The position numbers were made by a program, and so were the translations under genes. Shown here one piece after another: positions 23,571-58,298 of a stretch of 64,000 nt of DNA. The stretch spans positions 65,949 to 129,948 of the forward strand of contig JAKLIG010000002.1 of the NCBI GenBank assembly GCA_022709735.1. Direction: 5' to 3'. The notes beneath the pieces were generated by a model. The model searched no databases, had not been told where the DNA came from, and saw nothing but the letters and a program-made list of their open reading frames with translations. Source of the stretch: Patescibacteria group bacterium. Its GTDB lineage: Bacteria; Patescibacteriota; Minisyncoccia; Moranbacterales; UBA2206. Positions within the stretch are counted from its first letter, which is position 1; each line of letters begins with the position of its first letter.

Positions 23571-23644
23571 GGGTGTTTAGCTCAGCTGGTTAGAGCGTCA
23601 CATTGACATTGTGAAGGTCACTGGTTCGAGTCCAGTAATACCCA
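23571..23644 (+). tRNA. tRNA-Val (anticodon GAC)
   Basis: GGGTGTTTAGCTCAGCTGGTTAGAGCGTCACATTGACATTGTGAAGGTCACTGGTTCGAGTCCAGTAATACCCA. Anticodon loop is TTGACAT. Confidence 0.85.
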
Positions 23645-23654
23645 CTAAAATATT

Positions 23655-23726
23655 GGGACCATAGCTCAGCGGTAGAGCAGGCGACTCATAATCGCTTGGT
23701 CGAAGGTTCGAATCCTTCTGGTCCCA
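23655..23726 (+). tRNA. tRNA-Met (CAU; elongator type, or tRNA-Ile2 substrate of TilS)
   Basis: GGGACCATAGCTCAGCGGTAGAGCAGGCGACTCATAATCGCTTGGTCGAAGGTTCGAATCCTTCTGGTCCCA. G1-C72 pair and no GGG/CCC anticodon stem, so not an initiator. Confidence 0.75.
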
Positions 23727-23730
23727 CAAA

Positions 23731-33875: not shown

Positions 33876-33984
33876 CCAAATTTCCGAATCTGTTGTAAAA
33901 TATAAATGCAAATTAGATATCTTTAGTTATTCGAATCATTCGAGTGGCAATTTGAATTATTCGAGTCGCTTTATTAAAAACAAA

Positions 33985-42746: not shown

Positions 42747-42841
42747 TTAAATAAACTCTTTGCAAAATAATATATCCACTTATCCACAGCCCTAATTTTG
42801 TTTTTAAAAAAATACTTTTTGTGGTATAATTTCAATGCAAT

Positions 42842-43930
42842 ATGAAATTAAAAAATCTTAATACAACTCTGCTTATCTTGGCGGGCTTATTGTGTTTAAG
42901 CTTGGCTTTTTTTGCAATGGCTGAGCAGAATTCTAGCGGAGCAAAAAACATTTTTTTAGATTCCGATCAAGACGGTCTGGCCGATACAGAAGAAAAAGCT
43001 TATGGCACTAATCCAAAAAATTCTGACACGGATGGCGATGGCTATTCTGACGGCGCTGAAGTAAAAGCCGGCTATAACCCTTTGAAAAAAGCGCCTGGAG
43101 ACAAATTATCCGAAACTCCCAAACAGGAAGTCAAGGGAGAAAGTATAACAGCTAAAATTAGCGGGGAAAATGATAAAAAAACGACAACAGATACCACAGC
43201 AAAGGAAGCTTCCGTCTCTGGAGAAAAAGAAAATTTAACTGAAAAAGTTGCTGGAAAAATATCTGCCCTCGCTAACCAAAAAGATCCAGCTAACCAAACA
43301 ATTGACATGGAAGATATTCAGGGAATATTAGATTCAATTATGAGCGGAGAAGATTTCAAAGATGAACTTCCTAAAGTTTCCAAGGATGATATAAAAATTT
43401 TGAAACAAAACTATGGAAATTTAAGCGAAAAAAAAGCCAAGGAAAAAAAGAAAGAAGACGCCATCAATTATTCCGTCGCCGTCCTTTATATTTTTACCAG
43501 CAATTCTCCAGAACCTCTTACTTCCTCCACTGATGCTATTTCTATTCTCCAAAAAACAATCAAACAAATTTCTTCCTCTTTCAACTCTGGCAATCCAGAA
43601 AGTCTGAATGATCTAAGCAATAGTGGGGAAAAAATTTATGAACAGCTAAAAGAAGTCGTTGTTCCAGAAGATATGACAGACACACAAATAAAGGCCTTGC
43701 AATATGCTCTTTATGCCCAAGATCTAAAAAATATAGTTAAATTAGATCAAGCAGATCCCCTCGCTAGCCTGTCCAATTATTCAAAAATTGCAAATTATGT
43801 TAAGAGCTTAAATGCTTTTTATGATGAAATAAAAAGCAAGCTTGACGACTACGGCATAGAATATAATGAAGTTCAAAGCAAGCTAGAAGATCACGGGATT
43901 AAGGCAGATATTTTTGGAACCCAAGAATAA
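42842..43930 (+). CDS. secreted protein with thrombospondin-type-3-like Ca-binding repeats (first gene of T4SS-like cluster)
   Basis: Signal peptide. DSDQDGLADTEE...NSDTDGDGYSDGAEVKAGYNP D-x-D-x-D-G repeats. Confidence 0.45.
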   Translation: MKLKNLNTTLLILAGLLCLSLAFFAMAEQNSSGAKNIFLDSDQDGLADTEEKAYGTNPKNSDTDGDGYSDGAEVKAGYNPLKKAPGDKLSETPKQEVKGESITAKISGENDKKTTTDTTAKEASVSGEKENLTEKVAGKISALANQKDPANQTIDMEDIQGILDSIMSGEDFKDELPKVSKDDIKILKQNYGNLSEKKAKEKKKEDAINYSVAVLYIFTSNSPEPLTSSTDAISILQKTIKQISSSFNSGNPESLNDLSNSGEKIYEQLKEVVVPEDMTDTQIKALQYALYAQDLKNIVKLDQADPLASLSNYSKIANYVKSLNAFYDEIKSKLDDYGIEYNEVQSKLEDHGIKADIFGTQE

Positions 43931-44876
43931 AAATCCTTATATGAATTCCAATAAAAACAAAACCTATTTTTTGAAAAAAATATTATTTACAAGCTTTTTG
44001 GTTTTGTTTTTTTGCTTCTGGCAAGCACCGAAAGCTCAAGCAACTGTTTGGCCGGGAGTTGACCCAGTTATCAAACAAGGGCTGGAAGTGATAACAAACT
44101 TAATCCAAGATTTGATGGTGAGTGTCATAAAACAAGCAGCCATTCAATCAATTGTTCAATTAGTCGACTCTTCAGTTGGACGCGGAGCAGGAGGCCAGCC
44201 ATCCTTTATCACTAATTGGGATGATTTTTTAATCGGCCAACCAGAAAACAATACTAATATTTATATGAATGATTATATTAGTCGAATGACTCGTGGAAGA
44301 AATTCTTATTCCGGATATTCCACAGAGGGTTTTACCGGCCCAGCAAATTATGCTGCTGATTTAGGACAATTAGTCAACTCCTTAGGTGCTTCTAATGCTC
44401 CGGAGATGTCTTACGAAGGCGACCCTTCGCAAATGTTTGATGAGGGAAATTTCAAAAATATGGAACTTTATCTTTCGGGAGTTAATAATCCCTGGGCATT
44501 CAACATAGCTTATGAAAACGAACAGCAAAAAAAATTAGAAGAAGAAAAATATATCGCCCAAACACAAGCAATCGCTTATCAAGGATTTCGCGGAACACCG
44601 GGAGAACTGCCAGGTACTGTCACTAAGCCTGGAATCTTAATCAAGGAAAATGTAGCTAATACAGAAAATTTGCCAAATCTCACCCTGGCAAATGCCGGGA
44701 GTTTGCCAGAAATGATAGTTGCAGCCTTGGTCAATCAGATGGTCAGCCGTTCCATCACTGGTTATTCAAGCGTTCAAAGATCCACATCCAGATCAGCTGC
44801 TTCAGAAAATAGATATAATTCTAGCATTAATAGTTCCATTGATTCTCAAGGACCGGAAGCAAGATTCGGAAACTAA
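43914..44876 (+). CDS. secreted/membrane-anchored hypothetical protein
   Basis: N-terminal hydrophobic signal anchor (ILFTSFLVLFFCFWQAPKAQA). Confidence 0.4.
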   Translation: MEPKNKNPYMNSNKNKTYFLKKILFTSFLVLFFCFWQAPKAQATVWPGVDPVIKQGLEVITNLIQDLMVSVIKQAAIQSIVQLVDSSVGRGAGGQPSFITNWDDFLIGQPENNTNIYMNDYISRMTRGRNSYSGYSTEGFTGPANYAADLGQLVNSLGASNAPEMSYEGDPSQMFDEGNFKNMELYLSGVNNPWAFNIAYENEQQKKLEEEKYIAQTQAIAYQGFRGTPGELPGTVTKPGILIKENVANTENLPNLTLANAGSLPEMIVAALVNQMVSRSITGYSSVQRSTSRSAASENRYNSSINSSIDSQGPEARFGN

Positions 44877-44912
44877 ACTAGAAGTAAATTTCAAATTGAA
44901 AATTTCTAAATA

Positions 44913-47300
44913 ATGAAACAAAAATCCATAACAACTAAATTTATTCTCATCGCTATTTTTATCTTAGCGCTTGGGTTTGGGCTTGGGAAAATAAACAAGG
45001 CAAAAGCAGCCACTCTGACTGATTGCTCAACTGAAGATCCATCTTTAACTGGATCTTGTTTTTGCATTTCAACATCTCCGTTAGTAACACCCGGAGAAGG
45101 AGATGTTGTGTTAGGTGAATTATCCTGCCAAGATTGTAAAACACAAACAGAAAATCCTATATATGCAAATAAAAATTGCACATGGAGTCATGACAAAGGA
45201 GCTTGGGAACATATTAAATCTTTTGGAACGTCAGGAACAACTAAAGTAATAATGCACTCCAATGATGTTTGCCCTGGAATGGAATTAACAAATCCAAGAA
45301 CATGGCTTAATTGTTTTCTTCTATATATCTTGAAGCTTTGCGGATTTCTTCTTTCTGTTTCTGCTACTCTTTTTGGCTGGTCAATTGAGCCAGGTAATAT
45401 CACTAATGTTCTTAATAATGCAATCATATATAAAACTTGGGCGATGGTCAGAGATGTTCTAAATATTGCTTTTATAATGTTTTTGCTTTTTTCTGCTTTT
45501 GCTACTGTTTTCCAAATTGACAAATATAGCTACAAAAAAATTCTTCTTATGCTTGTCATTATGGCGCTTCTCGTTAATTTCAGTTTTCCCATCACTCGTT
45601 TTATCATCGATGTTTCCAACATGATGATGTATTATTTTATAGATGCCCTCAAAGTTGGTGATAAAGTTGCAGGGGATTGGTTTGTGACTATAGCCAATAA
45701 AGGTCAATTGCAAGCTATAATCAATCCGGAAGATCAGGCTGATACCACTTTTTTGATTATAGCCGTAATTTTTGTCTTCATGCTGGCTGTAACATTTTTG
45801 ACTATTGCCGTGCTTTTTGTAATCCGAACAATTGCTCTGGCAATTTTAATTATTTTTTCTTCTTTGGCTTTTGTCGGCGCTGCTGTCTCTCCACTTTCTT
45901 CCTATGCTTCTGATTGGTGGAAAAAACTTTTTAACTATTCTTTTTTCGGACCAATTATGATTTTTATGCTTTATGTGGCCACAAGTATGACTGGCGCCAT
46001 AAGCACTGTTGGAGGAGAAAGCATGCAAAAAATAGCCGGCGATAACTCAAATAATCCTGATTTTATAAGCAGTCTCTCTTTTTATATCATCCCGATTATC
46101 ATTCTTTGGCTTGGTCTTGGTATTGCGCAATCAATGAGCATCGCCGGCGCTTCGGCCGTTGTTGGAAAAGCACAAAACTTTATGAAAGGCGCTGGAAGCT
46201 GGGCGATCTCACCAGTTACTGGTGGATACAAAGCTGGCAAATGGTTAGCCGGAGCAGGAGTGGGTGCTGCTGAAAGATGGGCGGGTAAAGGTAAAATTAC
46301 AAAATTCCTTATTCCTCGTGTTTACAAAGAAGCTTATAAACAAAGAATGGCCATTAAGGATCGCGAAGCTTTTGAAGGATCAACTGGAGAAATGCATGAT
46401 TTGTTTAATAAATGGCTTAGTCGTGGCAGAAAAGAAAAATCTGACTATAGCTACGCTTCTCATGCAGGAAAAGTTTCCAAATATGTTTCAGAAATTTCTG
46501 CTGTCAACACTAATGCTGATTATGTAATGGAGGAATTAAAAAGAGCTATTGACAATAAACAAGTTGCCAAAGCTGAAGCCGCTCTCAAAATTCTGGCTAA
46601 AGAAAACAATCTCAATGAAATGATGCATGCTATGGGCAAAGCTTACGGTAATCACACACAAACCGCTGGACCGCTCAATATAAAAGCGGCCATACAAGAT
46701 ATATTGTCAAAAGCAGGAGCAGGAACTAATGATGATAAAAATGAATTTATGGCAAAAGAACTTCTAGCACTAAGTGAAACATGTATCAGCGCGGGAAATT
46801 TTGGTCTAGCTGGAATGGCCCGGTTTAAACCTGGAGAAAACGGACAGCCAGGCCAATTTATAATTTCTGATGATGCATATCAAAGATCTATAGCTATAGC
46901 TAAATTCCAAAATCTTGAATCACAAACAAGACAAAAAATGCTTCATCATAATTCTATTTTTGGTGAAAATAAAGACGGCTCTATCGGAGAAATCGATATT
47001 GTCCAACGAGGCATCCTAGAAAGCTTTAATGAAAAAGATGTCGATCAAATGAATCGTTCTCGAGATGACCTCGTAAGACAAATAAAAAGAGCTATCAATG
47101 AAGACAGAATTGATGCAAAAGCTCTGGAAATCTTAAACTCGGTTATGGAAGATAATAAATATTTAAAGGATTATGTTTTTGCAGCGGCTGAAGGAAAAGC
47201 TAAGGCTGAAAGCAAAAAAAATACAAACAAACCTACTCCATCAGGATCGAGCGATTCTGGAAATTATACTTATGATACAAGCAATAGTAGCAGATCTTAG
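44913..47300 (+). CDS. VirB6/TrbL-like polytopic membrane protein with Cys-rich N-terminal ectodomain and long hydrophilic C-terminal domain
   Basis: Signal peptide, ~6 TM helices in the middle, 795 aa. Its position two genes upstream of VirB3/VirB4 fits T4SS VirB6/TrbL organisation. Confidence 0.4.
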   Translation: MKQKSITTKFILIAIFILALGFGLGKINKAKAATLTDCSTEDPSLTGSCFCISTSPLVTPGEGDVVLGELSCQDCKTQTENPIYANKNCTWSHDKGAWEHIKSFGTSGTTKVIMHSNDVCPGMELTNPRTWLNCFLLYILKLCGFLLSVSATLFGWSIEPGNITNVLNNAIIYKTWAMVRDVLNIAFIMFLLFSAFATVFQIDKYSYKKILLMLVIMALLVNFSFPITRFIIDVSNMMMYYFIDALKVGDKVAGDWFVTIANKGQLQAIINPEDQADTTFLIIAVIFVFMLAVTFLTIAVLFVIRTIALAILIIFSSLAFVGAAVSPLSSYASDWWKKLFNYSFFGPIMIFMLYVATSMTGAISTVGGESMQKIAGDNSNNPDFISSLSFYIIPIIILWLGLGIAQSMSIAGASAVVGKAQNFMKGAGSWAISPVTGGYKAGKWLAGAGVGAAERWAGKGKITKFLIPRVYKEAYKQRMAIKDREAFEGSTGEMHDLFNKWLSRGRKEKSDYSYASHAGKVSKYVSEISAVNTNADYVMEELKRAIDNKQVAKAEAALKILAKENNLNEMMHAMGKAYGNHTQTAGPLNIKAAIQDILSKAGAGTNDDKNEFMAKELLALSETCISAGNFGLAGMARFKPGENGQPGQFIISDDAYQRSIAIAKFQNLESQTRQKMLHHNSIFGENKDGSIGEIDIVQRGILESFNEKDVDQMNRSRDDLVRQIKRAINEDRIDAKALEILNSVMEDNKYLKDYVFAAAEGKAKAESKKNTNKPTPSGSSDSGNYTYDTSNSSRS

Positions 47301-47329
47301 TTAAAGAAAGTATTTAAAAAAATAATTCA

Positions 47330-48685
47330 ATGATTAATAATATTCAACTATTAGATCAATACAATCAACTCCGAGAAATTTCCCAAGAAGCGATTGATCA
47401 TATTGATTCTGGTGTGGCCGAACGAGTCCTAAGAGAAATCAGAAAAAATTTCCCTGTTTTAAATTTGGGAAAGGCCACTTCTGATTTAGACAAAAAAATA
47501 TATGATCTACAGATAAAAATGCAGATTGTCAACTTTTTAGCCATCACCAACGAAGAAGCAATGAATATATTCAAAAATCATCTTCTTTCTTTTTTTAGAA
47601 TTGACATTCCAATGGAAGAAAGAGTGATTTCTCGTTATAATTATGTTGGCTATTCCGAAAAAGAGTCAGCTCGACTGGCTTTGAAAAAAGCTATTTTGGA
47701 AAACAAAGAGAGACTAGGCAATCTAACTATAGGCGAATGGGTAAATAAATTTGAAGAAAAAGATGTTGCTCTTGGCAGGTCAGAAAATTCTATTATGACT
47801 TTTATGTCGGAAGATTTGGATGCAAAAAAATTGCCAAAAACAGAACATGGTCTTTTGAAAATAATTTTACATGTTTATAAAAAATTAATAGCCTTGAAAT
47901 TAATCGATATTTTTGATATTGCAGAAACATTAAAAGAATCTGCTGGCAATAAACAACCAGATAAAAGACAGTCCTACTTAAGATATATTTCGCCAGAAAC
48001 TGAACTTTCGGAAAATGCTAAAACTGCAAATCTTACTCTTCCCGACGCTCTCAAGAGTTATCCTGATCTTGGCGAACAGTTGATTACCTCAAATTATATA
48101 AAACTCAAAAATTTTCCCGAACCAGTTCGACCATCAATCAAAAACTGGCTTTCTGACTATACTTTCAACACTGGCTATGAATCACATGGCGCGATGGATC
48201 GCGGAACATATCTTTTCCGAAATGAAAATGCAAAAATCCTAAATTCAGCCGATCGCGAAAGACTTTCTTATGTTTTAAAAAGCTATGATGAAAATTCGCT
48301 AATTGATGTCAACACTAACACTAAACAAATAGTTTTCCCAAAAGCCGAATTGACTAAGCAACATGCTTCATCGATCAAAACAGAATACAAGCCTGCCCCA
48401 ATAGCAGAAAGAAAAAACACTTCTGATTTTGGCGCGCAAAATCAAGCCTCAAGAAACTTTCAAGAAATTTACAATGCCCCAAAACAAAATGTTCAACCAA
48501 AAAATGAGCCCTTGAGTTTCAGCTCCCCACAAAAACTTCCCTATGAAAAACAAACGGCTCTGACTAAAAATTATAGCCCTCAACCGATGAGAATTTCCTC
48601 ACAAAATTCAAAACAAAATGAAAATAATAATTCAAAAAATAACCGCAATGTTCCACCAGGGAATATTGTAAACTTAAAAGAATAA
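47330..48685 (+). CDS. hypothetical soluble protein within T4SS-like cluster
   Basis: 451 aa. No TM and no NTP-binding motif. Confidence 0.4.
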   Translation: MINNIQLLDQYNQLREISQEAIDHIDSGVAERVLREIRKNFPVLNLGKATSDLDKKIYDLQIKMQIVNFLAITNEEAMNIFKNHLLSFFRIDIPMEERVISRYNYVGYSEKESARLALKKAILENKERLGNLTIGEWVNKFEEKDVALGRSENSIMTFMSEDLDAKKLPKTEHGLLKIILHVYKKLIALKLIDIFDIAETLKESAGNKQPDKRQSYLRYISPETELSENAKTANLTLPDALKSYPDLGEQLITSNYIKLKNFPEPVRPSIKNWLSDYTFNTGYESHGAMDRGTYLFRNENAKILNSADRERLSYVLKSYDENSLIDVNTNTKQIVFPKAELTKQHASSIKTEYKPAPIAERKNTSDFGAQNQASRNFQEIYNAPKQNVQPKNEPLSFSSPQKLPYEKQTALTKNYSPQPMRISSQNSKQNENNNSKNNRNVPPGNIVNLKE

Positions 48686-48686
48686 T

Positions 48687-49085
48687 ATGTTATTCAATGT
48701 TCCACAATTTATCGATATTGAAGACAAAATTGTCGGCCCACTCACGGCCAAACAACTTGGTTGGCTTGGAATTGCTGGAGTTTTACTTCTTATTTTCTGG
48801 GGTACGCTCACTTTTTCCACTTTTGTCTTTGTCGCAATAATAACTCTTGGGATTTTTGGCGCCTTGGCATTTTATCGACCATATAACCAGCCCCTTTCAA
48901 ATCTTATAATGTCTGGAATAAATTATTTTATAAAACCGAAAGTCTATGTTTGGAAGAGATATTATGATAATATAAAAGCAACCAGCCAAGTTTCTGTTCA
49001 TCCTAAAGAAGAAGTTATTATTAGAAAAAAAGTTTTAGATAATAAAAAAATAGAAGAATTAACAAAAATACTAAATCAAAAATAA
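48687..49085 (+). CDS. VirB3/PrgI-like small two-TM protein
   Basis: 132 aa with two adjacent TM helices. It sits immediately upstream of VirB4, the conserved VirB3 position. Confidence 0.45.
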   Translation: MLFNVPQFIDIEDKIVGPLTAKQLGWLGIAGVLLLIFWGTLTFSTFVFVAIITLGIFGALAFYRPYNQPLSNLIMSGINYFIKPKVYVWKRYYDNIKATSQVSVHPKEEVIIRKKVLDNKKIEELTKILNQK

Positions 49086-49774
49086 TGGAATTTCTACATT
49101 CAAAAAAATTATCAAAAGAAGCGTCTTCTTCGCCTACCCAAAAATACTTGGATGTAGCAGAAATTAAAGATGATGTGGTTGTTCTGAAATCCGGCGCGCT
49201 TCGTTCTATTCTGGCGGTATCCGCAATCAACTTTGATTTGAAATCAACTGACGAGCAAGAAGCCATCATCAATCAATATCAGAATTTCTTGAATTCTGTA
49301 GATTTTCCTATCCAAATTCTAATCAGTTCTCGAAAACTGAATATGCAAACTTATCTTGACTATATCACCGAAAAGGAAAAAACCCAGTCAAGCGAACTTC
49401 TCCGAATGCAACTGGCAGAATACAAAAGTTTTATCGAGCAACTAGTAAGCGGTTCAAATATTATGGAAAAAAATTTCTATATAATTATCCCGTTTTCTCC
49501 AATTGAAAATCAAGAAAAAGGATTTTTTTCAAATATCGGAAGCCTCATGAACCCGCAGAAGAATATTCTAGAAAAAAGAGAGAATTTTGAAACATACAAA
49601 AACCAACTTTTTCAAAGAATCGACCATGTTATCGCTGCCCTCTCTGGAATTGGCTTGCGCATTGCGCCTCTCAAAACTGAAGAGCTTATTGAACTTTTGT
49701 TTGATTCCTACAATCCTGAAGTTTTCAATGCAACAGAACTTAAGGATATAAATAAATTAGAACTACAAAAATAA
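49085..49774 (+). CDS. VirB4/TraC N-terminal domain encoded as a separate ORF
   Basis: DDVVVLKSGALRSILAVSAINFDLKSTDEQEAIINQYQNFLNSVDFPIQIL matches the N-terminal domain of Gram-positive-type VirB4 (TcpF/Orf16-like). It ends in an A5 tract 4 nt before the next ORF, which is in the +1 frame. Confidence 0.55.
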   Translation: MEFLHSKKLSKEASSSPTQKYLDVAEIKDDVVVLKSGALRSILAVSAINFDLKSTDEQEAIINQYQNFLNSVDFPIQILISSRKLNMQTYLDYITEKEKTQSSELLRMQLAEYKSFIEQLVSGSNIMEKNFYIIIPFSPIENQEKGFFSNIGSLMNPQKNILEKRENFETYKNQLFQRIDHVIAALSGIGLRIAPLKTEELIELLFDSYNPEVFNATELKDINKLELQK

Positions 49775-49778
49775 ATTC

Positions 49779-51605
49779 ATGCTTAATTTATTCAAAAAAA
49801 ATACAAACACTCCTGCTCCCGCCAAACCGACTAATGAAGTTTTAGAATCAGAAAAATATTATCAAGAAGGGGTTTCTCGCCTCAACGATCTTTTGGCGCC
49901 CGCAGCTATAAAAGTAACTCCAAAATATATCCGAGTAGGCGAAACTCTCGCCCAAACTATTTTTGTCGTCGCTTATCCACGATTTCTAAATAGCAACTGG
50001 TTTTCACCGATTATAAACATCGACTTGCCGATAGATATTTCCATGTTTATTCATCCAATTGAAACTTACGACATTTTGAAAGATCTTAAAAAAAATGCCA
50101 CTCGAGTTGAATCACAACTTCATATCGAACAAGAAAAAGGTATGATTCGTGATCCTGCTCTCGAAACAGCCATTCAGGATATTGACGAACTTCGGGACAA
50201 ACTTCAACAAGGAACAGAAAAATTTTTCCGCTTTGGGCTCTATATCACTGCTTATGGAGAAAATGAAAAAGAACTTTCTGACATTTCTCGTTCCATTGAA
50301 GCAATTTTGGAAGCGCAATTGGTTTATATAAAACCGGCTATTTTTAAGTCTGAACAAGGATTCAATTCCACCCTTCCTCTTGCCAATGATGAATTAGACA
50401 TTGGAAGCAGCATGAATAGCGCTCCGCTTTCTACTACATTTCCTTTTGTTTCCTCCACCCTTTCTTCTAATGATGGAATTCTCTATGGAATAAACCGCCA
50501 CAACAATAGCTTGATTATTTTTGATCGATTCAAAATGGAAAACGCTAATATGGTAGTTTTTGCTAAATCTGGTGCTGGAAAAAGCTATACCATAAAGCTA
50601 GAAGTTCTCCGATCTCTTATGATGGGAACAGATGTTATTATTATTGATCCAGAAAATGAATACAAACATTTATGCGAAACAGTCGGTGGAACTTTTATAA
50701 AAATTTCCCTAAATTCCAACAACCATCTCAATCCTTTTGATTTACCACATATCAAAGAAGATGAGGATCCTGAAGATATCCTTCGAAATAACATTGCCAA
50801 TCTTCTCGGGCTTTTTCATATTATGCTTGGAAATATTACTCCAGAAGAAGATTCTATTTTAGGTCGAGCCATTCGGGAAACCTATGCTGTCCGCGATATT
50901 ACGGCTGAATCAAATTTCGATACTCTTACAAAAGAATCCTATCCCACCATGACTGATCTTTATCAAATTCTTCGCAGTATGGACGGCGGAGAAAACTTGG
51001 CCATTCGAATGGAAAAATATACGGAAGGAATTTTTTCAGGTTTCTTAAATAATACTACCAACATAAGCGTAAATAACCCGATGATGGTTTTCAATATCCG
51101 TGACATGGAAGAAGAATTGCGTCCAATTGCTATGTATATGGTAATGCAGTTTATTTGGAATGAAATGAGAACAACACTCAAGCGCCGGCTGGTTTTGGCC
51201 GATGAAGCTTGGGTAATGATGAAGTATGACGATGCTGCTTCTTTTATGTTCGGAATTGCTAAGCGTTGCCGAAAATATTATACCGGTCTCACTACCATCA
51301 CCCAGGATGTCAACGACTTTCTAAGCTCGCGCTACGGAAAAGCCATTGTCACCAACTCCTCAATTCAATTGCTTTTAAAACAATCGCCAGCCGCCGTGGA
51401 TGTTATCAGCGAAACTTTCTATCTCACTGACCAGGAAAAATTTCTTCTCTTGGAATCAAATGTCGGTGAAGGAATTTTTTTCGCTGGCACAAAGCATGTT
51501 GCTATTAAGGTTGTAGCTTCATATTCAGAGGATCAAATAATTACTACTGATCCAGCTCAACTTTTAGAAATTGAGCAAGCCAAAAAAGAATTCTCTGAAG
51601 AATAA
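49779..51605 (+). CDS. VirB4/TrbE-family T4SS ATPase (middle and C-terminal ATPase domains)
   Basis: YIRVGETLAQTIFVVAYPRFL middle-domain motif. Walker A AKSGAGKSY and Walker B RRLVLADEAW. Confidence 0.85.
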   Translation: MLNLFKKNTNTPAPAKPTNEVLESEKYYQEGVSRLNDLLAPAAIKVTPKYIRVGETLAQTIFVVAYPRFLNSNWFSPIINIDLPIDISMFIHPIETYDILKDLKKNATRVESQLHIEQEKGMIRDPALETAIQDIDELRDKLQQGTEKFFRFGLYITAYGENEKELSDISRSIEAILEAQLVYIKPAIFKSEQGFNSTLPLANDELDIGSSMNSAPLSTTFPFVSSTLSSNDGILYGINRHNNSLIIFDRFKMENANMVVFAKSGAGKSYTIKLEVLRSLMMGTDVIIIDPENEYKHLCETVGGTFIKISLNSNNHLNPFDLPHIKEDEDPEDILRNNIANLLGLFHIMLGNITPEEDSILGRAIRETYAVRDITAESNFDTLTKESYPTMTDLYQILRSMDGGENLAIRMEKYTEGIFSGFLNNTTNISVNNPMMVFNIRDMEEELRPIAMYMVMQFIWNEMRTTLKRRLVLADEAWVMMKYDDAASFMFGIAKRCRKYYTGLTTITQDVNDFLSSRYGKAIVTNSSIQLLLKQSPAAVDVISETFYLTDQEKFLLLESNVGEGIFFAGTKHVAIKVVASYSEDQIITTDPAQLLEIEQAKKEFSEE

Positions 51606-51608
51606 ATT

Positions 51609-52175
51609 ATGCTATACGATCCTCAAAAAAAACAAAATTTTGAAGATGAAAAACTAAAAACTCGTCAAGAAAAAGCTCAGAAAACATTGAAAGAAAACAG
51701 CATTGGAAAAAACAAAGGCCAAGCGCAAAAAACTATCCGATCCGCTAAAAATTTACTAAAAAAACTCACTCCGCTTCACGCCTTGTCTCTTGCTACCCAA
51801 ATCCGACCGTCTGATTTAGTTTATCTCATCGCCCTAGTTGCAGCAATTTTAAAAGATTTTTTAATAGATCCTATTGAAGCTACAGGGATAGGTTATGCTT
51901 TTGTATTTATAATAACACTCCTTGTTTCAATCCTTATTTGGTTTATGATGACTTTGGCAAATTTTTCCGATAGCGGGCAAAAGGTGAATCATAAGGTAAT
52001 AAAAAGCTGGCTTGTTCTCTTGGGAGGAACAACCGCCGAAATGCTTTTTGGAGTTAATATTCTGCCAATTGAAACACTCACAGTTTTTATTATATATTTT
52101 ATGGCACTTTCTGCCCGAAAAGAAGCTAAAGAAAAAGCCAAAGAAGAAGCTGCTGCGCAAGAAAGTTATGCCTAA
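51609..52175 (+). CDS. membrane protein (3-4 TM), unknown function
   Basis: 188 aa. Starts 4 nt after VirB4. Confidence 0.4.
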   Translation: MLYDPQKKQNFEDEKLKTRQEKAQKTLKENSIGKNKGQAQKTIRSAKNLLKKLTPLHALSLATQIRPSDLVYLIALVAAILKDFLIDPIEATGIGYAFVFIITLLVSILIWFMMTLANFSDSGQKVNHKVIKSWLVLLGGTTAEMLFGVNILPIETLTVFIIYFMALSARKEAKEKAKEEAAAQESYA

Positions 52176-52199
52176 AAATTTCGTGCCACTCACAAACAT

Positions 52200-52880
52200 A
52201 TGCGCTATTATAGAAAAAAAAGTTTTTTGTCCCGCTTAACTAGCGTTTTTATCGATAATAAGGAAATTGCCATCACCTGCTTGGTAATTATTTTTTGTTT
52301 ACTTTTATCAATTATTTTTCCGGTCAACAATTCCGTCCAGCTTCTTACTCGAAATATTTTTTTTCTGATTATTGTTCCAATTCTTTATTATAAATTAATT
52401 CTTGGAAAAAGATTTTCCGACTTGGGCCTGATTTTAGGCGACAAAAGGGCGGGAATTTTTTGGGGAATTATTTTGTTCTTTGTTTCTCTTTTGATTTTTT
52501 ATCTTCTTTATACCTATACAGATTTTAAAAAAAATTATTTGCTTTCATCCTATGTCGTCCATAATTTCTGGCTTTTTTTGCTTTACGAGCTTTTACTCGC
52601 CAATCTTTTTGTTTTTATCCAAGAATTTTTTTGGCGCGGATTTATCTTACTTTATTTTTCCAAAAAAATATCTTACTTTTCAATTTTTTTACAATTTATT
52701 CTTTTCACATTGATGCTTATTCCAGCAAAAAATACTTTTTGGCAAATGGCACCAACACTAGTAATTTCCCTTTTTTCTGGTATAATTGTATACAAAAGCC
52801 GGTCTATTTTATATTCTTGGATTTTCGCTTTGTTTTCCCTGGTAATTTTAGATAGTTTCATAATCTATCATTTAAAATGA
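52200..52880 (+). CDS. CPBP-family (CAAX/Abi) intramembrane protease-like protein
   Basis: Polytopic. QEFFWRGF matches the EExxxR motif-1 region. Confidence 0.4.
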   Translation: MRYYRKKSFLSRLTSVFIDNKEIAITCLVIIFCLLLSIIFPVNNSVQLLTRNIFFLIIVPILYYKLILGKRFSDLGLILGDKRAGIFWGIILFFVSLLIFYLLYTYTDFKKNYLLSSYVVHNFWLFLLYELLLANLFVFIQEFFWRGFILLYFSKKISYFSIFLQFILFTLMLIPAKNTFWQMAPTLVISLFSGIIVYKSRSILYSWIFALFSLVILDSFIIYHLK

Positions 52881-55669
52881 AAAATAAAAAGTTCAAAAAA
52901 ATTTATTCAATATTAAACTTGGTTGTTATTGTTTTGCTATTTTTTTCCCAAACAGGAATAGCGCAAGCTATTGATGTAGGAAGTGTCGGCAATATTATGG
53001 GTGTCAGTAGCCCGGCTGGTTTTTTAGATTCCATCTTTGACGATCTCGAATTAGATAAAGAAGAACTCAAATATGACATTCAGACATTCAATTCATCTAG
53101 CTCGAAAAAAACTCCACCGTCAGTTTCTCTATTTTTTAGCCCGGCTAATCCAAGCGAGGGAGAAAAAATCACCGTCACTGCTTCCCCAACTTATTTTCTA
53201 AATGACCCCAAGGAATTATATTATACTTGGTTTTTAAAAACAGAGGATTGTGATAGAACTAACAATATCACAGAAGAAAACAGAAAATGCGACCTTGATG
53301 AAGATGAGGATATCGATATTGAAGATTATAAAATAAAAGCTACTAAAATCATTGCTAACGGTGGATTTGTTTTGCCTGAAAATTATGGGGAACTTGAAAA
53401 ACTTTACCAAAGCGACTCTGATGATGATGGCTATGATGCTTATACGGGAGGTAATGATCAAAAAGGCAAAAACCCCTATTGCTACATTCACAATATAGAA
53501 ACTGGTGAGGAATATCGAATAAAGCATTGCGAGGAAGATGATGAAGAAGATGTTGATTTCAAAGATCTCCATCTTTTCCCAAATGCTCCTTACAGAACAA
53601 CTGGAAATGGAGAATTTGATACAATTGAAGAAAAATTCTGGAACACTGATCCAAACAGCAACGATACTGCCGGTACTGGAAATTCCGATGAAGCTAATGT
53701 AGCCGGGTTAGGCATAACTAACTTTACTTGGAATTATCAAAAGGGCGATGAAGTAGGAGTAGCAGTAGAAGGAGTCTCCACTGAACCGACTCAAACAGAT
53801 GATTCTTCCTACAAAACCATGTGGGCGATAAGCAAGGGGACTTATGAAGTTGATACTACTTATAATGAAAATGACTATCCGGAAACTACTACTCTAAGCA
53901 CAGATACTGATTTAAATACGCCTGTGCTTGGGCAAACCACTGTCACGATCAAAACTAAAGTTGAAGAAATTGATACTGACGAAGATGGAAATGAAAAAAT
54001 TGTCAATGAAATTGCCACAATTAAAACCACTTATTATACTAGAGTTACTATAACTAATGATATAACCGGAGACATTATAAGCGATGATACTGATCCGGAT
54101 GAATCAACAACCGAAGATCCAAACCCAGCCTATTCCACAGCCAATCTTGCTGGAGAGTTTGATATAGAAGCAAATGATTATGAAATTGAAAAGCCCTCTG
54201 ATTTAAATAAGCTTTTATACAAGGCCTTAGTTTCTCCTCAAGAAAACAGTGCCGGGAGTAATAAATTGGAAATTAATCTTTCTTATTCTCCTTCCAATCC
54301 AATAAATGATCCAACCGGCGAGCAAAGCGATATATTAGTTATCCATTCTTCTATTCCAAATGCTAAAGATAATAATTATTTGCAATATAAATGGAGTGTT
54401 TATAATAGTGACGAAGTAAATCCTGATAGTTGGGGGAACGCTATGCTAAAAACTGACCTGCCTGAATCAACTCAATCGATTGGATTTGGAATTGATACTT
54501 TTAAATTTAAATTAGCTTTAGAAAATCCAAAAAAATATATTAGAGTTGCTCTGACTGCCACAGAAAATGTTGGAGAAACATATTCTCGAAAAACTAGCCA
54601 GGATTTAATTATTCCAATTACTTCTATAGACGAAAATGAACAGATAAGCGCTTCCATTGCTTCCATTACGACGGCTGATCCTTCAGATACGGCCAATCTA
54701 TCTGGGATAAGTCTTGGTTTAGGCACTCAAATTTGCGATGTCAACGCTACCGAAAAAGCTGTTTGCCCAATTACTAAAAATCAAATTATAGGGCTATCCT
54801 ATCCAAAGAATACTTCTTCAACTACTGCCCAAGATTTTCTTTGGACAATTGATGGCAAACCATTTTCTTATCCATATTGCTATTTTGATGGCTGTGATTC
54901 AACTCATCCAGAAATGCAAACCAATACAGCCTTTTTCCCGGTTCTCAAAGAAGTTGGCGAGAAATATATGATAACTCTTACAACCGTGGATGCGGATAAG
55001 AATGGAAAGAAAATAAATTTAACAAAAACTTTTAAGGTGGTCGAACCAAAAATTGAAATTATTTCAGCAGATGAAAGTTGCGCTATCGGAGACAAAAATT
55101 GCAGACGGGAAGTTATAGGAAAATATTTCGATGTTGATGGCACATCATTCCCTGACTACAGTCGAAATAAATTTTGGGCGATAGTTGGCTCTAATGTCAA
55201 ATTGAAGGCTATAGCTAGCTTTCCGGTTTCCCCAGAAGAATATATTTGGACAGTTGATGGCACTTCGATAAATTATTACAACGCTAGCGACTATGGCTTC
55301 AGTATCGATGATACCGGCGCTCTTATCTTGCCTCCAAAAGAAAAACAAGGAGAAAATTATAATATATCTGCGAGCGCTCTCTATACCCAAGATCCCTTAG
55401 TTAAAAAAGCACTGAAAAATATTTGGAATATAACTTATAATCAATTCTATGAAAAACCCGTTTCTGATAACATTATTGTAAATATGTATAATGAAGAAGC
55501 AGTGACTACTACTCAAAAATCAGTTAAAAAAGTATTCGCTTCAGTATTTTCCTCTGCTCCAGCTTATATTGCCTTTCTTCTTAGAGTAGTTCTCACTATA
55601 TTCATCCTCCTATTCACAGTAAATTTAATTTTTTCTTTTTCTCCAAAAATTAATTCAAAAGAAGATTAA
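52877..55669 (+). CDS. large (930 aa) acidic Thr/Asp-rich surface protein with signal peptide and C-terminal TM anchor
   Basis: N-terminal signal peptide. C-terminal AYIAFLLRVVLTIFILLFTVNLIF helix. Confidence 0.5.
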   Translation: MKNKKFKKIYSILNLVVIVLLFFSQTGIAQAIDVGSVGNIMGVSSPAGFLDSIFDDLELDKEELKYDIQTFNSSSSKKTPPSVSLFFSPANPSEGEKITVTASPTYFLNDPKELYYTWFLKTEDCDRTNNITEENRKCDLDEDEDIDIEDYKIKATKIIANGGFVLPENYGELEKLYQSDSDDDGYDAYTGGNDQKGKNPYCYIHNIETGEEYRIKHCEEDDEEDVDFKDLHLFPNAPYRTTGNGEFDTIEEKFWNTDPNSNDTAGTGNSDEANVAGLGITNFTWNYQKGDEVGVAVEGVSTEPTQTDDSSYKTMWAISKGTYEVDTTYNENDYPETTTLSTDTDLNTPVLGQTTVTIKTKVEEIDTDEDGNEKIVNEIATIKTTYYTRVTITNDITGDIISDDTDPDESTTEDPNPAYSTANLAGEFDIEANDYEIEKPSDLNKLLYKALVSPQENSAGSNKLEINLSYSPSNPINDPTGEQSDILVIHSSIPNAKDNNYLQYKWSVYNSDEVNPDSWGNAMLKTDLPESTQSIGFGIDTFKFKLALENPKKYIRVALTATENVGETYSRKTSQDLIIPITSIDENEQISASIASITTADPSDTANLSGISLGLGTQICDVNATEKAVCPITKNQIIGLSYPKNTSSTTAQDFLWTIDGKPFSYPYCYFDGCDSTHPEMQTNTAFFPVLKEVGEKYMITLTTVDADKNGKKINLTKTFKVVEPKIEIISADESCAIGDKNCRREVIGKYFDVDGTSFPDYSRNKFWAIVGSNVKLKAIASFPVSPEEYIWTVDGTSINYYNASDYGFSIDDTGALILPPKEKQGENYNISASALYTQDPLVKKALKNIWNITYNQFYEKPVSDNIIVNMYNEEAVTTTQKSVKKVFASVFSSAPAYIAFLLRVVLTIFILLFTVNLIFSFSPKINSKED

Positions 55670-55678
55670 AAAAACAAA

Positions 55679-56230
55679 ATGAAAAAAATATTTATATTTA
55701 CATTTATTTCTTTATTTGCTTTTCCTTCAATAACAGAGGCCTATTGTTCTTGCTACAATCGACAATATTTTGCAACTACAATTGGCGAGGAAATTACGGA
55801 AGATATAGGGGCTGATAAATGTGACCAAGAATGTGCCAATCGCAGAACGAAATACTATTGTCTTAAAGATGTTTGCGCATCATATGACATTGTTCCTATC
55901 ACAAAAACACCTACCACTACTGATACCACTACTATAGGAACCTACAAACCCATGGAAGAAATTCCAGGATTTGGAAGGCCAGAAAATTTTCCAGCATACC
56001 TTATGGCAATTTATAAATTTGGTCTTTGGGCAATCGGAATGTGCGCAGTTTTTATGATTATGATCGGCGGATATATGTATTTGACTTCTGCTGGCAACAA
56101 TACTCAAACTGGAAAAGCTAAGGGAATTATCACAGACGCTATAGCCGGACTTATCCTAGCGTTAGTTTCGTATCTTTTGCTTTATACAATCAATCCAGAT
56201 TTAGTCATATTTACATCTATAATAAAATAA
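55679..56230 (+). CDS. VirB2/TrbC-like pilin candidate
   Basis: Signal peptide, Cys-rich segment, then two hydrophobic helices (LMAIYKFGLWAIGMCAVFMIMIGGYMYL...AIAGLILALVSYLLLY) in the TrbC/VirB2 arrangement. Confidence 0.45.
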   Translation: MKKIFIFTFISLFAFPSITEAYCSCYNRQYFATTIGEEITEDIGADKCDQECANRRTKYYCLKDVCASYDIVPITKTPTTTDTTTIGTYKPMEEIPGFGRPENFPAYLMAIYKFGLWAIGMCAVFMIMIGGYMYLTSAGNNTQTGKAKGIITDAIAGLILALVSYLLLYTINPDLVIFTSIIK

Positions 56231-56243
56231 AAAATAAAAAACC

Positions 56244-57128
56244 ATGTTTTCTAAAAAAAGTTTTTTTGCAACAATCATAATTTTGCTGTTTTTATTTTTG
56301 CCCCTAGCCTTGATTAATGCTCAAGGTGTAGTTCCTTGCGGGCATGGCGATGATCCAAATAATGCTTGCACGCTTTGCCACCTAATCATCGGCATCAAAA
56401 AAATTATTGATTTTGGCTTGAAATTGCTTGTCGTTGTCGCATTTATTGGAATTTTTATCGCTGGCATAATGTATATCATTTCTTCCGGGTCTGAAGAGAT
56501 GATGAAACGTGCCAAGGCTTTTCTTACTGCCAGTCTTACTGGGTTTGCTATAACTTTAGGCGCATGGCTAATCGTAAATATTGTGATATGGAGCCTTTCT
56601 GCCAATCCCACAATAGGCATTAAAGGGGCTAATTGGTATACCTTTACTTGCAGTACTAAAAGCTCTGCTGCTAATCCAGCAGTAACAACCCCTAGCGCTC
56701 CTAGTGCGCCTAGCACACCTAATGCTCCTAGTGCTCCTGGAGGGGGAGGAACTGCTTCAGGATATACCTATGATCCAGGAATTCAATCTCAAGCATCAGA
56801 TGCCTCAGGAGATTTAACTCAACTTTTAAATTGCATGCAGCCGAAACTGCCTACTGAAGCCAAAAGAATCAGTTCTATTTCCGATTCACATGGAATGGAA
56901 AATTGTGCAGGAACAGCATGGGAAAGTAGTTGCGCTCATACAAAAGATTCTTGCCACTATGGTGGAAAAAATTCTAGTTGTATTGGGAAATCATATGCTG
57001 CTGATTTTGGAAATGAAAGCTATTCTAATCAAATAATTTCAACGGCGAGATCATGCGGAGCAAATTATGCAGTCATGGAAGGAAATCATGTCCATGTCAG
57101 CGTTGGAGCTTCTTGCGGATGTAACTAA
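56244..57128 (+). CDS. second VirB2/TrbC-like pilin domain fused to a Pro/Ala/Ser linker and a Cys-rich C-terminal domain
   Basis: Signal peptide. Pilin-like helices KLLVVVAFIGIFIAGIMYI / FAITLGAWLIVNIVIW. Linker PSAPSAPSTPNAPSAPGGGG. At least 8 Cys in the C-terminal 140 aa. Confidence 0.4.
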   Translation: MFSKKSFFATIIILLFLFLPLALINAQGVVPCGHGDDPNNACTLCHLIIGIKKIIDFGLKLLVVVAFIGIFIAGIMYIISSGSEEMMKRAKAFLTASLTGFAITLGAWLIVNIVIWSLSANPTIGIKGANWYTFTCSTKSSAANPAVTTPSAPSAPSTPNAPSAPGGGGTASGYTYDPGIQSQASDASGDLTQLLNCMQPKLPTEAKRISSISDSHGMENCAGTAWESSCAHTKDSCHYGGKNSSCIGKSYAADFGNESYSNQIISTARSCGANYAVMEGNHVHVSVGASCGCN

Positions 57129-57140
57129 TTTAGCAAAAAA

Positions 57141-58298
57141 ATGTCTATTCTCAAAAAAATATTTTTTCTTTCTATTTTTATTTTTTTTCTTTCCCTGCTT
57201 TTTTGGGGTATTTATACCTTGTCTTTTAAAAAAACAGAAGTAGCTGAAAATGAAAATGCGCCAACAGATAATAATTCTATTATTGATAGCGCTCTCGACA
57301 AAATTATACCTACCTCTAACGCAAAAATTTCTGTAATTTCTCAAGAAGCCCTTATTTCTCCGCTCATTTCAACAGATGAAGATAAAATTTGGTATTTTTC
57401 CACCTCTGGAGAATTAAAAGAATTCGATCTTGCTGGAAGCGCTCAAAAAAATTTGGCTGACAAAAAAATTACTGGCGTTTCAAAAGTTGTTTGGTCTCCA
57501 AATAAACTAAAGGCTTTATTGAAAATTAAAAATTCCGATGGAAGCAGCTCTTTTTCACTTTTTGACATAAAAACCGGCCAAGCCTCTCCCCTTAATGCAA
57601 ATATTAATGAAGTTTCATGGCTAGCAACTTCTGATAAAATTTTTTATAAATATTTTGACACAAAAAACAAAAAAAGCACGCTGAATATTTCCAGCCCAGA
57701 TGGGAGTGGTTGGAAAAAGCTGCTAGAGCTTCCTCATGATAAAATATTTTTCTACCAAATTCCAAGATCTGGATTGGTTTCTGTTTGGAACAATGGGGAC
57801 GCCTATTATCCAACTCTTCTTCAAACAATTTCTCTTATCGGGGAAGATTTGAAAACTCTATATAAGGATAGCTTTGGCGCCGATTATCTTTGGGACAATG
57901 CCGGAAATCATGCCTTAGTAAGCCAAACAGATACCAAGGGTGGAACAAAAATTCAACTTGGCGTCATAAATTATAACGGTGGAGAATATAAAAACCTCGG
58001 CCTCCCAACTTTCGCCTTTAAATGCTTGTGGTCTAAAGATAATATAACTATTTATTGCGCTCTTCCGGGAGAAATTCCTGACAATTCTATTTTGCCCAAT
58101 GATTATAAAGCCGGAAAATTTACCACATCTGATACTTTTTGGAAAATTAATATTGAAACAGGAGAAAAAAAGCGTCTAGTTGAAACTGCCGACATAAATA
58201 GCGCTTTCGACGCTTCAAATCTATTCGCCAATTCCGATGAAAGTTTGCTTTTCTTTGTGAATAAAATTGACGGAAAGTTATATAAAATAGCGCTATAG
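57141..58298 (+). CDS. secreted beta-propeller-like protein (TolB-like)
   Basis: N-terminal TM/signal. Repeated ~40-aa beta-rich blocks. Confidence 0.35.
   Translation: MSILKKIFFLSIFIFFLSLLFWGIYTLSFKKTEVAENENAPTDNNSIIDSALDKIIPTSNAKISVISQEALISPLISTDEDKIWYFSTSGELKEFDLAGSAQKNLADKKITGVSKVVWSPNKLKALLKIKNSDGSSSFSLFDIKTGQASPLNANINEVSWLATSDKIFYKYFDTKNKKSTLNISSPDGSGWKKLLELPHDKIFFYQIPRSGLVSVWNNGDAYYPTLLQTISLIGEDLKTLYKDSFGADYLWDNAGNHALVSQTDTKGGTKIQLGVINYNGGEYKNLGLPTFAFKCLWSKDNITIYCALPGEIPDNSILPNDYKAGKFTTSDTFWKINIETGEKKRLVETADINSAFDASNLFANSDESLLFFVNKIDGKLYKIAL

Follow-up and report, generated by a model that had tools for sequence, protein, structure and literature searches.

Contig JAKLIG010000002.1 of the Patescibacteria group bacterium assembly GCA_022709735.1 contains, in the 64,000-nucleotide (nt) stretch between positions 65,949 and 129,948 of the forward strand, a cluster of 13 genes that resembles a type IV secretion system (T4SS) and stands in a neighborhood without a conjugation module. 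The whole stretch is called the window here, and all positions are given within it. The question raised by the locus is what such a system is for. The answer regarded as probable is that the cluster is a chromosomally fixed T4SS of the Patescibacteria type in its Candidatus Moranbacteria form, descended from monoderm MPF-FATA conjugation machinery and used as a non-conjugative host-contact pilus. A preliminary description of the same DNA had proposed a pilus-forming T4SS with a non-conjugative role toward a host; this agrees with two published studies (Wang 2023, PMC10633639; Quiñonero-Coronel 2025, PMC12102498) and is correct but not new.

The cluster consists of 13 open reading frames (ORFs) on the plus strand (42842-58298), arranged head to tail and numbered g1 to g13. 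The spacers between them are, in order, -17, 36, 29, 1, -1, 4, 3, 24, -4, 9, 13 and 12 nt; three junctions overlap, and non-coding DNA amounts to 131 nt over 15.4 kb. The co-directional, tightly spaced arrangement described earlier was found for all 13 ORFs.

Secretion core

The cluster is a T4SS because it encodes a VirB4 ATPase of the monoderm CD1110/PrgJ family, a PrgI-type VirB3 protein, a TrsD-like protein, a VirB6-like protein and VirB2-like pilins. The ATPase is g7 (49779..51605, plus strand, 608 aa), for which CD1110 is the best NCBIfam family: the profile NF045971 ('VirB4-like conjugal transfer ATPase, CD1110 family') matches at 9.4e-109 and 364.7 bits, against a curated cut-off of 325. 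The protein is 27% identical to residues 227-772 of pCF10 PrgJ (E 5e-48), matches the VirB4 structure 4ag5 in the PDB (1.6e-49) and the Pfam family P-loop_TraG (1.4e-31), and contains a Walker A motif (AKSGAGKSY) and a Walker B motif (LVLADEAW), which bears out the VirB4 with Walker A/B motifs that had been proposed. An FtsK/HerA identity was rejected: the DUF87 match (1.1e-8) falls behind the TraG P-loop, and the VirB4 families score far higher.

The match of g7 covers positions 185-734 of the 752 in NF045971, with the N-terminal ~185 absent. The ORF directly upstream, g6 (49085..49774, plus strand, 229 aa), is identified by NCBIfam as a TrsD-like, stand-alone VirB4 N-terminal domain, with matches to VirB4_plasma (9.5e-12, profile positions 87-234), TrsD/TraD (1.6e-8) and the CD1110 VirB4 (1e-7, profile positions 12-121). 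Since g6 covers VirB4 profile positions that are absent from g7, VirB4 is split into the TrsD-like g6 and g7, as it is in most Patescibacteria (PMC12102498). Related loci were compared by tblastn of the products, using the 80 best genome matches and the 10 kb on either side of virB4; g6 is present in 79 of these 80 loci, always directly 5' of VirB4.

Next upstream is g5 (48687..49085, plus strand, 132 aa), a PrgI-family (VirB3-like) protein with two transmembrane (TM) segments (PF12666 PrgI, 2.5e-9; 38 bits vs a Pfam gathering score of 27) and homologues in 76 of the 80 loci. The match confirms the VirB3-like two-TM protein of the preliminary description, but not its position immediately before VirB4, as the 229-aa g6 lies between them.

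The putative channel component is g3 (44913..47300, plus strand, 795 aa), a polytopic membrane protein. Its ectodomain is Cys-rich, about six TM helices span aa 135-402, and the hydrophilic C-terminal region takes up ~390 aa; a signal peptide is also present. Its VirB6/TrbL label was assigned because its homologues match TrbL or TrbL_3: many of the 311 homologues carry a precomputed PF19590 (TrbL_3) or PF04610 (TrbL) match, and TrbL was recovered in 4 of 28 that were rescanned (best 2.5e-7). With moderate confidence, g3 is predicted to be an extended VirB6-like protein; the Cys-rich polytopic architecture proposed for this 795-aa protein stands, and its family name comes through the homologues. 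An hhalign comparison of g3 with pCF10 PrgH, a low-power test, gave E values of 0.009-0.08. Orthologue profiles of g1 to g13 aligned in the same way with single pCF10 proteins (PrgD-M, PcfB) gave nothing significant; even g5 failed against PrgI, and the test has little power.

No protein of the cluster matches a VirB9 or VirB10 family in Pfam or NCBIfam scans. The PrgJ/CD1110-type VirB4 and the PrgI-type VirB3, together with the lack of an outer-membrane core (VirB7/9/10), place the system with the monoderm MPF-FATA group.

Pilins and the LAS domain

At the family level g11 and g12 are VirB2-like pilins. The first, g11 (55679..56230, plus strand, 183 aa; T4SS_pilin 3e-5), combines a signal peptide and a Cys-rich N-terminal domain with a Thr-rich linker and a hairpin of the pilin type at aa 108-171, and it contains two TM segments and 7 Cys; a local pilin hidden Markov model matches residues 111-171. 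The second, g12 (56244..57128, plus strand, 294 aa; T4SS_pilin 1.9e-3), has a signal peptide, a pilin hairpin at aa 28-125 (nt 56325-56618), a disordered Pro/Ser/Ala linker at aa 140-171 and a C-terminal domain at aa 172-294 (nt 56757-57125). T4SS_pilin was found in 27 of 36 homologues of g12 (best 2.7e-14) and TrbC in 3; the AlphaFold2 (AF2) model contains a two-helix hairpin formed by residues 44-79 and 84-119, and the NCBI annotation of g12 reads 'pilin'. The two tandem VirB2/TrbC-like pilins proposed earlier are confirmed by these data.

The Cys-rich C-terminal domain to which one pilin had been said to be fused adopts a zinc-hydrolase-like fold of the LAS (lysostaphin / DD-peptidase / Hedgehog) type. 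It follows the disordered linker in the AF2 model and is predicted with a pLDDT of 90-97. A Foldseek search found nothing, and Pfam scans of isolated LAS domains returned noise only, such as one Peptidase_M15_3 match at E 0.23. A profile of the domain compared with PDB sequences matched Hedgehog domains in 23 of 25 cases (best E 0.017), aligning HYGG with HYEG and NHVHVSV with NHVHVSV. The invariant positions are H238, D254, H282, H284 and six cysteines, with E279 close to invariant, and the LAS-type His-Asp-His zinc ligands (H-x(n)-D, H-x-H) are intact; the conserved motifs are ISSISD, SCHYGG, SYAxD and HxHxS. The C-terminal domain of g12 thus contains a LAS zinc site, and a peptidoglycan peptidase is therefore predicted as its most likely activity. 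The statement that the ORF at 56244 has no recognizable family does not hold, both a pilin domain and a LAS-fold domain having been identified in it.

The distribution of the LAS domain was determined by an exhaustive search over 1.84 billion representatives, which found it in 375 protein clusters. Among the best 150 of these, 130 also contain a T4SS pilin domain, located N-terminal to LAS in 128 of the 130; the remaining 20 are for the most part short fragments. The LAS domain thus appears to be almost always C-terminal to a T4SS pilin. Related loci with the domain include L008, L014, L015, L019-L021, L024, L028, L029, L032 and L035.

The stretch encoding the linker between the pilin and LAS domains (nt 56688-56738) consists of imperfect 9-nt tandem repeats. 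The Ala/Pro/Ser linker is disordered in the AF2 model; its length may vary, or it may be where the protein is processed.

Conservation among relatives

The order of the 13 genes and their flanks recur in about 20 species, with amino acid identities from ~30% (g2, g8) to 93% (VirB4). The flanks are KsgA, 1.9 kb upstream of the cluster, and UbiA on one side and two Wzy-type genes on the other. Because the same order and flanks are found in about 20 species, the arrangement is not due to chance. VirB4 is 68-94% identical across 80 species. Conserved synteny and housekeeping flanks fit a fixed chromosomal function under purifying selection, and the synteny across related Patescibacteria raised as a check in the preliminary description is thereby established.

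Three arrangements of the T4SS genes, or synteny types, occur within the order (L041-L061 vs L001-L034 vs L065-L072). One is the full 13-gene block. In another, the pilins are followed by PrgI, TrsD, VirB4 and g8 and then by MgChl-G5-KsgA, with a hydrolase and the VirB6-like gene 10 kb away. A further arrangement runs hydrolase-VirB6-g4-PrgI-TrsD-VirB4-g8-CPBP-g10, with no pilins detectable nearby. The g3-g8 core is retained in two arrangements besides the 13-gene block.

The 80 best matches belong to Moranbacteria, Parcubacteria and other metagenome-assembled Patescibacteria genomes, except for about 20 labeled 'uncultured Bdellovibrionales' and a few with uninformative titles. The contigs titled 'uncultured Bdellovibrionales bacterium' (TPA), about 20 of 80, include L007, L030, L032, L036, L041, L046, L050, L051 and L057. 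Their VirB4 identities are 68-85% and their synteny is that of the Moranbacteria genomes; the title is probably a taxonomic mislabel.

Conjugation genes and mobility

The preliminary description had seen no VirD4, relaxase or VirB11, and Pfam scans of all window ORFs of at least 280 aa likewise found none. Jackhmmer searches started from the pCF10 type IV coupling protein (T4CP) PcfC and relaxase PcfG found nothing in the 64-kb window or in the 80 loci; PrgJ, used as a control in the same search, recovered all VirB4s. The absence of a coupling protein is established for the neighborhood only.

Could the cluster nevertheless be part of an ordinary conjugative element (an integrative and conjugative element or an integrated plasmid), or the decaying remnant of one, with its relaxase and coupling protein just outside the region? 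The core genes do descend from monoderm conjugation systems, the window extends 5.7 kb past the downstream end of the cluster, and a tyrosine recombinase gene is located at 23772-24716 beside tRNA genes. However, no PcfC- or PcfG-like gene lies within 10 kb of virB4 in the 80 related loci; the preliminary description had named relaxase and T4CP genes just outside the window as a finding that would overturn it. The cluster is bordered by housekeeping and envelope genes (KsgA, UbiA, Wzy) that are conserved with it, and there are no att-like flanking direct repeats, the repeats present being low-complexity chance ones. The G+C content of the cluster is 0.34-0.37, the same as in the remainder of the window, without a compositional anomaly. 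The degree of VirB4 conservation is contrary to decay, the recombinase lies 18 kb away and is XerC/D-like in appearance, and relaxases were reported in only 103 of 3,035 genomes (PMC12102498). That the present-day locus is a conjugative element or the remnant of one is therefore highly improbable, and since neither a relaxase nor a coupling protein is encoded nearby, an epibiotic use is preferred over conjugation.

Hydrolase domains in relatives

The hydrolase-type domains attached to the pilins differ between close relatives. In the closest ones, with a VirB4 93% identical to that of the window, pilin 2 has no LAS domain and pilin 1 has a C-terminal lytic-transglycosylase (SLT) domain; the g11 orthologue in L001 (16050-17024), for example, is a protein of 324 aa with a C-terminal SLT, and the same is found in L002, L003, L009, L010, L018 and others. 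The window differs: its pilin 1 bears the N-terminal Cys-rich domain and its pilin 2 the LAS domain. The related loci include 13 with pilin-SLT, 12 with pilin-LAS (plus the window) and 4 with both, and in none of them was an SLT or LAS domain found outside a pilin ORF. One database homologue also combines a pilin with SLT (3.4e-13). The hydrolase domains appear to have changed places between pilin 1 and pilin 2 within short evolutionary distances.

In clades whose pilins have neither SLT nor LAS, a PrgK-like LysM-CHAP hydrolase gene is found directly 5' of the VirB6-like gene. The window has a gene of this kind, unlinked to the cluster and 16.8 kb upstream of it (25073..26068, plus strand), which encodes a LysM-CHAP peptidoglycan hydrolase of 331 aa (LysM 1.3e-23, CHAP 2.4e-16). 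Its product is 55% identical (1e-130) to that of L065:4113-5288, which abuts the g3 orthologue, and its CHAP domain is 35% identical to residues 752-847 of pCF10 PrgK (E 2e-8). The gene is a candidate VirB1 equivalent, and by comparison with the relatives it may belong to the system. Because relatives have either SLT or LAS pilins or a PrgK-like hydrolase beside VirB6, a wall-hydrolase function appears to accompany the T4SS in one form or another. The neighbors of the LysM-CHAP gene are the XerC/D-like recombinase gene (23772-24716) and genes for tRNA-Val and tRNA-Met (23571-23727).

A further and bolder proposal, which is doubtful, is that the pilins of Moranbacteria and related Parcubacteria are modular carriers of swappable wall-cutting heads, LAS on one and SLT on the other, and that these enzymes, borne by the filament or tethered at its base, drill through host peptidoglycan. 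Such a drill would bring the T4SS tube to the host membrane, where macromolecules could be taken in or exchanged, and it would supply a mechanism for the envelope-penetrating tubes seen by cryo-electron microscopy in a cultivated Patescibacterium.

Accessory genes

The remaining seven genes encode secreted, membrane or cytoplasmic proteins. The first, g1 (42842..43930, plus strand, 362 aa), encodes an acidic secreted protein (isoelectric point, pI, 4.7) with a hydrophobic N-terminal segment at residues 9-27 and TSP3 Ca-binding repeats (TSP3_bac 1.5e-15). It occurs only in synteny type A (29 loci) and is a clade-specific accessory gene. The product of g2 (43914..44876, plus strand, 320 aa) has a signal-like segment at residues 17-35 and is a secreted or anchored protein conserved in 30 loci; it has no match in Pfam, NCBIfam or the PDB, even by orthologue profile, and is a candidate for a VirB8-type role. 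The two signal-peptide proteins noted earlier, one of them with TSP3 repeats, correspond to g1 and g2.

The cytoplasmic orphan g4 (47330..48685, plus strand, 451 aa) has a predicted structure in which a helical N-domain (aa 1-206) and an alpha/beta domain (aa 229-341) are both confidently predicted and a disordered tail follows. A fold search with the model gave no informative match. Wherever a homologue was detected beside the VirB6-like and VirB3-like genes, it lies between the two (synteny types A and C).

Directly 3' of VirB4 is g8 (51609..52175, plus strand, 188 aa), predicted to be a membrane protein with three TM segments and without a family match in Pfam or NCBIfam. It has tblastn matches in 61 of the 80 loci and, among the full-length loci that were tabulated, holds this position in each of the three synteny types. 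An apparent fusion of VirB4 with g8 in L006 was rejected; these are two separate genes.

The product of g9 (52200..52880, plus strand, 226 aa) is a CPBP-fold membrane protein with six TM segments (Rce1-like, 1.7e-7; PF02517, 31.8 bits vs a gathering score of 22.4); its best NCBIfam match, over a near-full profile and under the cut-off, is the CPBP archaeomyxosortase MrtA (3.9e-8). The profile match upholds the CPBP assignment of the preliminary description, but the designation as a protease does not stand: g9 is not to be classed with the active CPBP proteases because the catalytic histidines are not conserved. The conserved residues are Y129, E130, F144, G147, Q165, S202, S206 and D218. QEFFWRG is kept, and the CPBP motifs EExxxR, FxxxH and HxxxN/D are otherwise not matched; Q165 and S202/S206 occupy the expected positions of the His motifs, as judged by spacing from motif 1 and not by residue-level Pfam alignment. 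The protein is probably not a canonical metalloprotease.

The stop codon of g9 overlaps the start of g10 (52877..55669, plus strand, 930 aa), and the two genes are translationally coupled. The large acidic surface protein encoded by g10 (pI 4.37) had been recognized as such; a signal peptide and a long ectodomain were recognized in it, and at the C-terminal end a conserved motif, PxYxAFLLR, runs into the TM anchor helix, where A888, P895 and F900 are invariant. It is a candidate adhesin. The g9-g10 pair co-occurs in synteny types A and C, and a sorting or anchoring relationship between the two is plausible but speculative. The C-terminal motif and TM helix of g10, together with g9, are reminiscent of a pair of sorting signal and sorting enzyme.

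The last gene, g13 (57141..58298, plus strand, 385 aa), encodes an N-terminally anchored or secreted protein that is restricted to synteny type A and is likewise a clade-specific accessory gene. It has no direct family match, and orthologue scans gave weak matches to propeller families (DUF5050, 9e-5, in 2 of 13). The beta-propeller label given to this secreted protein in the preliminary description is weakly supported, and g13 is only possibly of that fold.

PDB sequence searches gave no matches for g2, g10 or g13. Besides g12, three ORFs had been listed as having no recognizable family. This remains accurate for those at 43914 and 47330 (g2 and g4), and that at 52877 (g10) has faint Ig_3 and PKD_3 matches, through its orthologues only.

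The secreted and accessory proteins encoded in the operon (g1, g2, g10 and g13) and the extracytoplasmic hydrolase domains suggest a second use, in which the T4SS would secrete proteins, possibly including hydrolase domains, into or onto the host and the pilins would form a short conduit or anchor. Wang 2023 (PMC10633639) made a like suggestion for the T4SS of Saccharibacteria, which 'may instead export proteins'. However, the secreted proteins of the cluster have Sec-type N-termini and so do not need the T4SS, no T4CP is encoded nearby to recruit substrates, and no effector-like toxin domain was found. Effector export is thus unlikely as the principal function; it overlaps the preferred explanation and differs from it only in cargo and direction.

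Comparison with known systems

Epibiotic growth of the cultivated Saccharibacterium S. epibionticum requires its T4SS (SEML1_0006-0019) and the array of pilins, and the cluster is without recognizable coupling or relaxase proteins (PMC10633639). A phylum-wide survey of 3,035 genomes described TrsD, PrgI, VirB4, VirB6 and VirB2 arrays with few relaxases, and KsgA nearby in Paceibacteria (PMC12102498); the class also features in a 2025 T4SS review. The window agrees with the gene content given in the survey: TrsD, VirB3, VirB6 and VirB2-like pilins are encoded close to virB4, its vicinity is free of relaxase genes, and the context is chromosomal. The features shared with the Patescibacteria-clade T4SS are a chromosomal, monoderm-derived VirB4, a separate TrsD, a PrgI-type VirB3, a VirB6-like protein, an array of VirB2-like pilins and a cluster without relaxase or T4CP; the nearby KsgA is shared with Paceibacteria.

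Unlike the S. epibionticum system, the Moranbacteria layout adds g1, g2, g4, g8, g9, g10 and g13, and the window cluster has two pilins where S. epibionticum has six. The PrgK-like hydrolase gene is unlinked in the window, whereas S. epibionticum has peptidase and lysozyme genes right after virB4. Pilins with LAS or SLT domains and a CPBP-like gene further distinguish the locus from described Patescibacteria T4SS, neither being mentioned in PMC12102498 or PMC10633639. The class of system is therefore already published (Saccharibacterium 2023; survey 2025), and the locus adds nothing at that level; the pilin-LAS and pilin-SLT fusions, the pair of a degenerate CPBP protein and a surface protein, and the orphan g4 are possibly new.

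The MPF-FATA systems (pCF10 Prg/Pcf; pGO1/pSK41 Trs) share with the cluster a PrgJ/CD1110 VirB4 (27% identity), PrgI, a CHAP hydrolase like PrgK and the lack of an outer-membrane core; TrsD is shared with pGO1. Unlike pCF10, the window cluster has no PcfC T4CP, PcfG relaxase or PrgB-type LPXTG adhesin. It also differs from Gram-positive T4SS, which lack VirB2-like pilins, in having such pilins, a split VirB4 and chromosomal fixation.

With H. pylori ComB the cluster shares VirB2, VirB3, VirB4 and VirB6 homologues and the absence of relaxase and T4CP. That the cluster is a ComB-like T4SS, obtaining nucleotides by the import of DNA from the environment or the host, could be argued from this likeness, from the DNA-uptake idea raised for Patescibacteria (PMC11665869) and from a weak similarity of g7 to the archaeal DNA-import ATPase CedB (1.8e-12). 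The CedB match, however, is far weaker than those to conjugative VirB4. ComB uses VirB7/9/10-type parts, and the cluster has no VirB8, VirB9 or VirB10 family match; the diderm ComB7/8/9/10 were not found in it and no link to ComEC was seen. In S. epibionticum, competence needs type IV pili and ComEC, and deletion of comEC leaves viability intact, in contrast to the essential T4SS (PMC12857230). DNA uptake of the ComB kind is less favoured and decidedly unlikely.

The LAS domain of g12 differs from known LAS zinc hydrolases (Hedgehog N-domain / Streptomyces DD-peptidase, MEROPS M15) in being fused to a pilin through a disordered linker, in being Cys-rich, in the Cys-containing insertion that separates its His ligand from its Asp ligand and in being invisible to Pfam. 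The VirB1 proteins, for their part, belong to the lytic transglycosylases or the CHAP enzymes and not to the LAS peptidases.

Proposed function

In the host-contact pilus regarded here as probable, the split VirB4 (g6 and g7) would dock through g5 onto the VirB6-like channel g3 in a single membrane, and this VirB3/TrsD/VirB4/VirB6 platform would power an extracellular filament or tube of the two VirB2-like pilins. In F-type and T-type pilins, both termini face outward. With the same orientation the LAS domain of g12 would consequently lie outside the membrane, which fits its many cysteines; there it would either stay exposed on the filament or be released by cleavage in the flexible linker. 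The domain is predicted to cut peptide links of peptidoglycan in the wall of the producer, in that of the host, or in both. Host contact may be provided by the Ca-binding g1 and by the surface protein g10, on which g9 would act. The machine would serve the epibiotic interaction, by attachment or penetration and transfer of macromolecules, rather than conjugation. Published proposals on cargo and direction comprise effector export (PMC10633639), nucleic-acid uptake (PMC11665869) and host-penetrating tubes (bioRxiv 10.64898/2026.06.21.733656); the last are tubular structures, possibly T4SS pili, that reach into the host and have been linked to RNA acquisition.

Several points weigh against this explanation. 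The channel protein g3 has no direct Pfam match, no VirB8-like part was identified in the cluster, and the T4SS_pilin scores of g11 (24.4 bits) and g12 (18.7 bits) are both under the Pfam gathering score of 26.6. No histidine is conserved among 52 orthologues of g9. The closest relatives do without the LAS domain, which is thus not indispensable. The window shows 5.7 kb downstream of the cluster; VirD4-like genes are present in most Patescibacteria genomes, usually far from virB4 (PMC12102498), and by analogy one may be encoded elsewhere in this genome.

No T4SS had been shown to be essential for the growth of its owner before that of Patescibacteria, for which effector export, nutrient uptake and nucleic-acid uptake have been proposed as uses, and the locus provides a clean, fully syntenic reference layout for Moranbacteria. 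The pilin-hydrolase fusions, with ~375 LAS clusters, point to wall breaching as part of the mechanism. The degenerate CPBP-like protein and the giant surface protein may form a module for anchoring or processing an adhesin, and the conserved cytoplasmic orphan g4 is a lead in a system without a nearby coupling protein.

Genomic context

The other genes of the window are housekeeping genes, such as those for GyrA, FtsH, PNPase, UvrD/PcrA, S1, TilS and tRNAs, together with surface-polysaccharide genes. The products of g4 and g12 are 100% identical to proteins from a metagenome-assembled Candidatus Moranbacteria genome, which bears out the reduced, episymbiotic Patescibacterium presumed for the locus. 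Outside the cluster, the ORFs at 33952-35214, 21892-22878, 7185-8096 and 3351-4283 (300-420 aa class) had no Pfam match at E <= 0.01. A G5-DPBB gene at 39065 was considered as a part of the T4SS and not adopted; its MgChl-G5-KsgA neighbors are kept in another clade, where they are differently placed relative to the T4SS, and it looks like a housekeeping gene.

A promoter-like site (TTTAAA-16-TGnTATAAT; 42803..42830, plus strand) was found by consensus scan 12 nt 5' of g1. The scan gave 71 such sites in the region vs 56 expected by chance, which is weak evidence, and the site could possibly be the operon promoter.

The surface-polysaccharide genes comprise three for Wzy_C (O-antigen-ligase-like) proteins, one for a GT2 glycosyltransferase and one for a polysaccharide flippase (5601-7172, 58300-59469, 59459-60781, 60962-61795 and 62584-63993). 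In about 20 species the two Wzy genes directly 3' of the T4SS accompany it in synteny, and a surface-glycan locus is thus consistently adjacent to the cluster.

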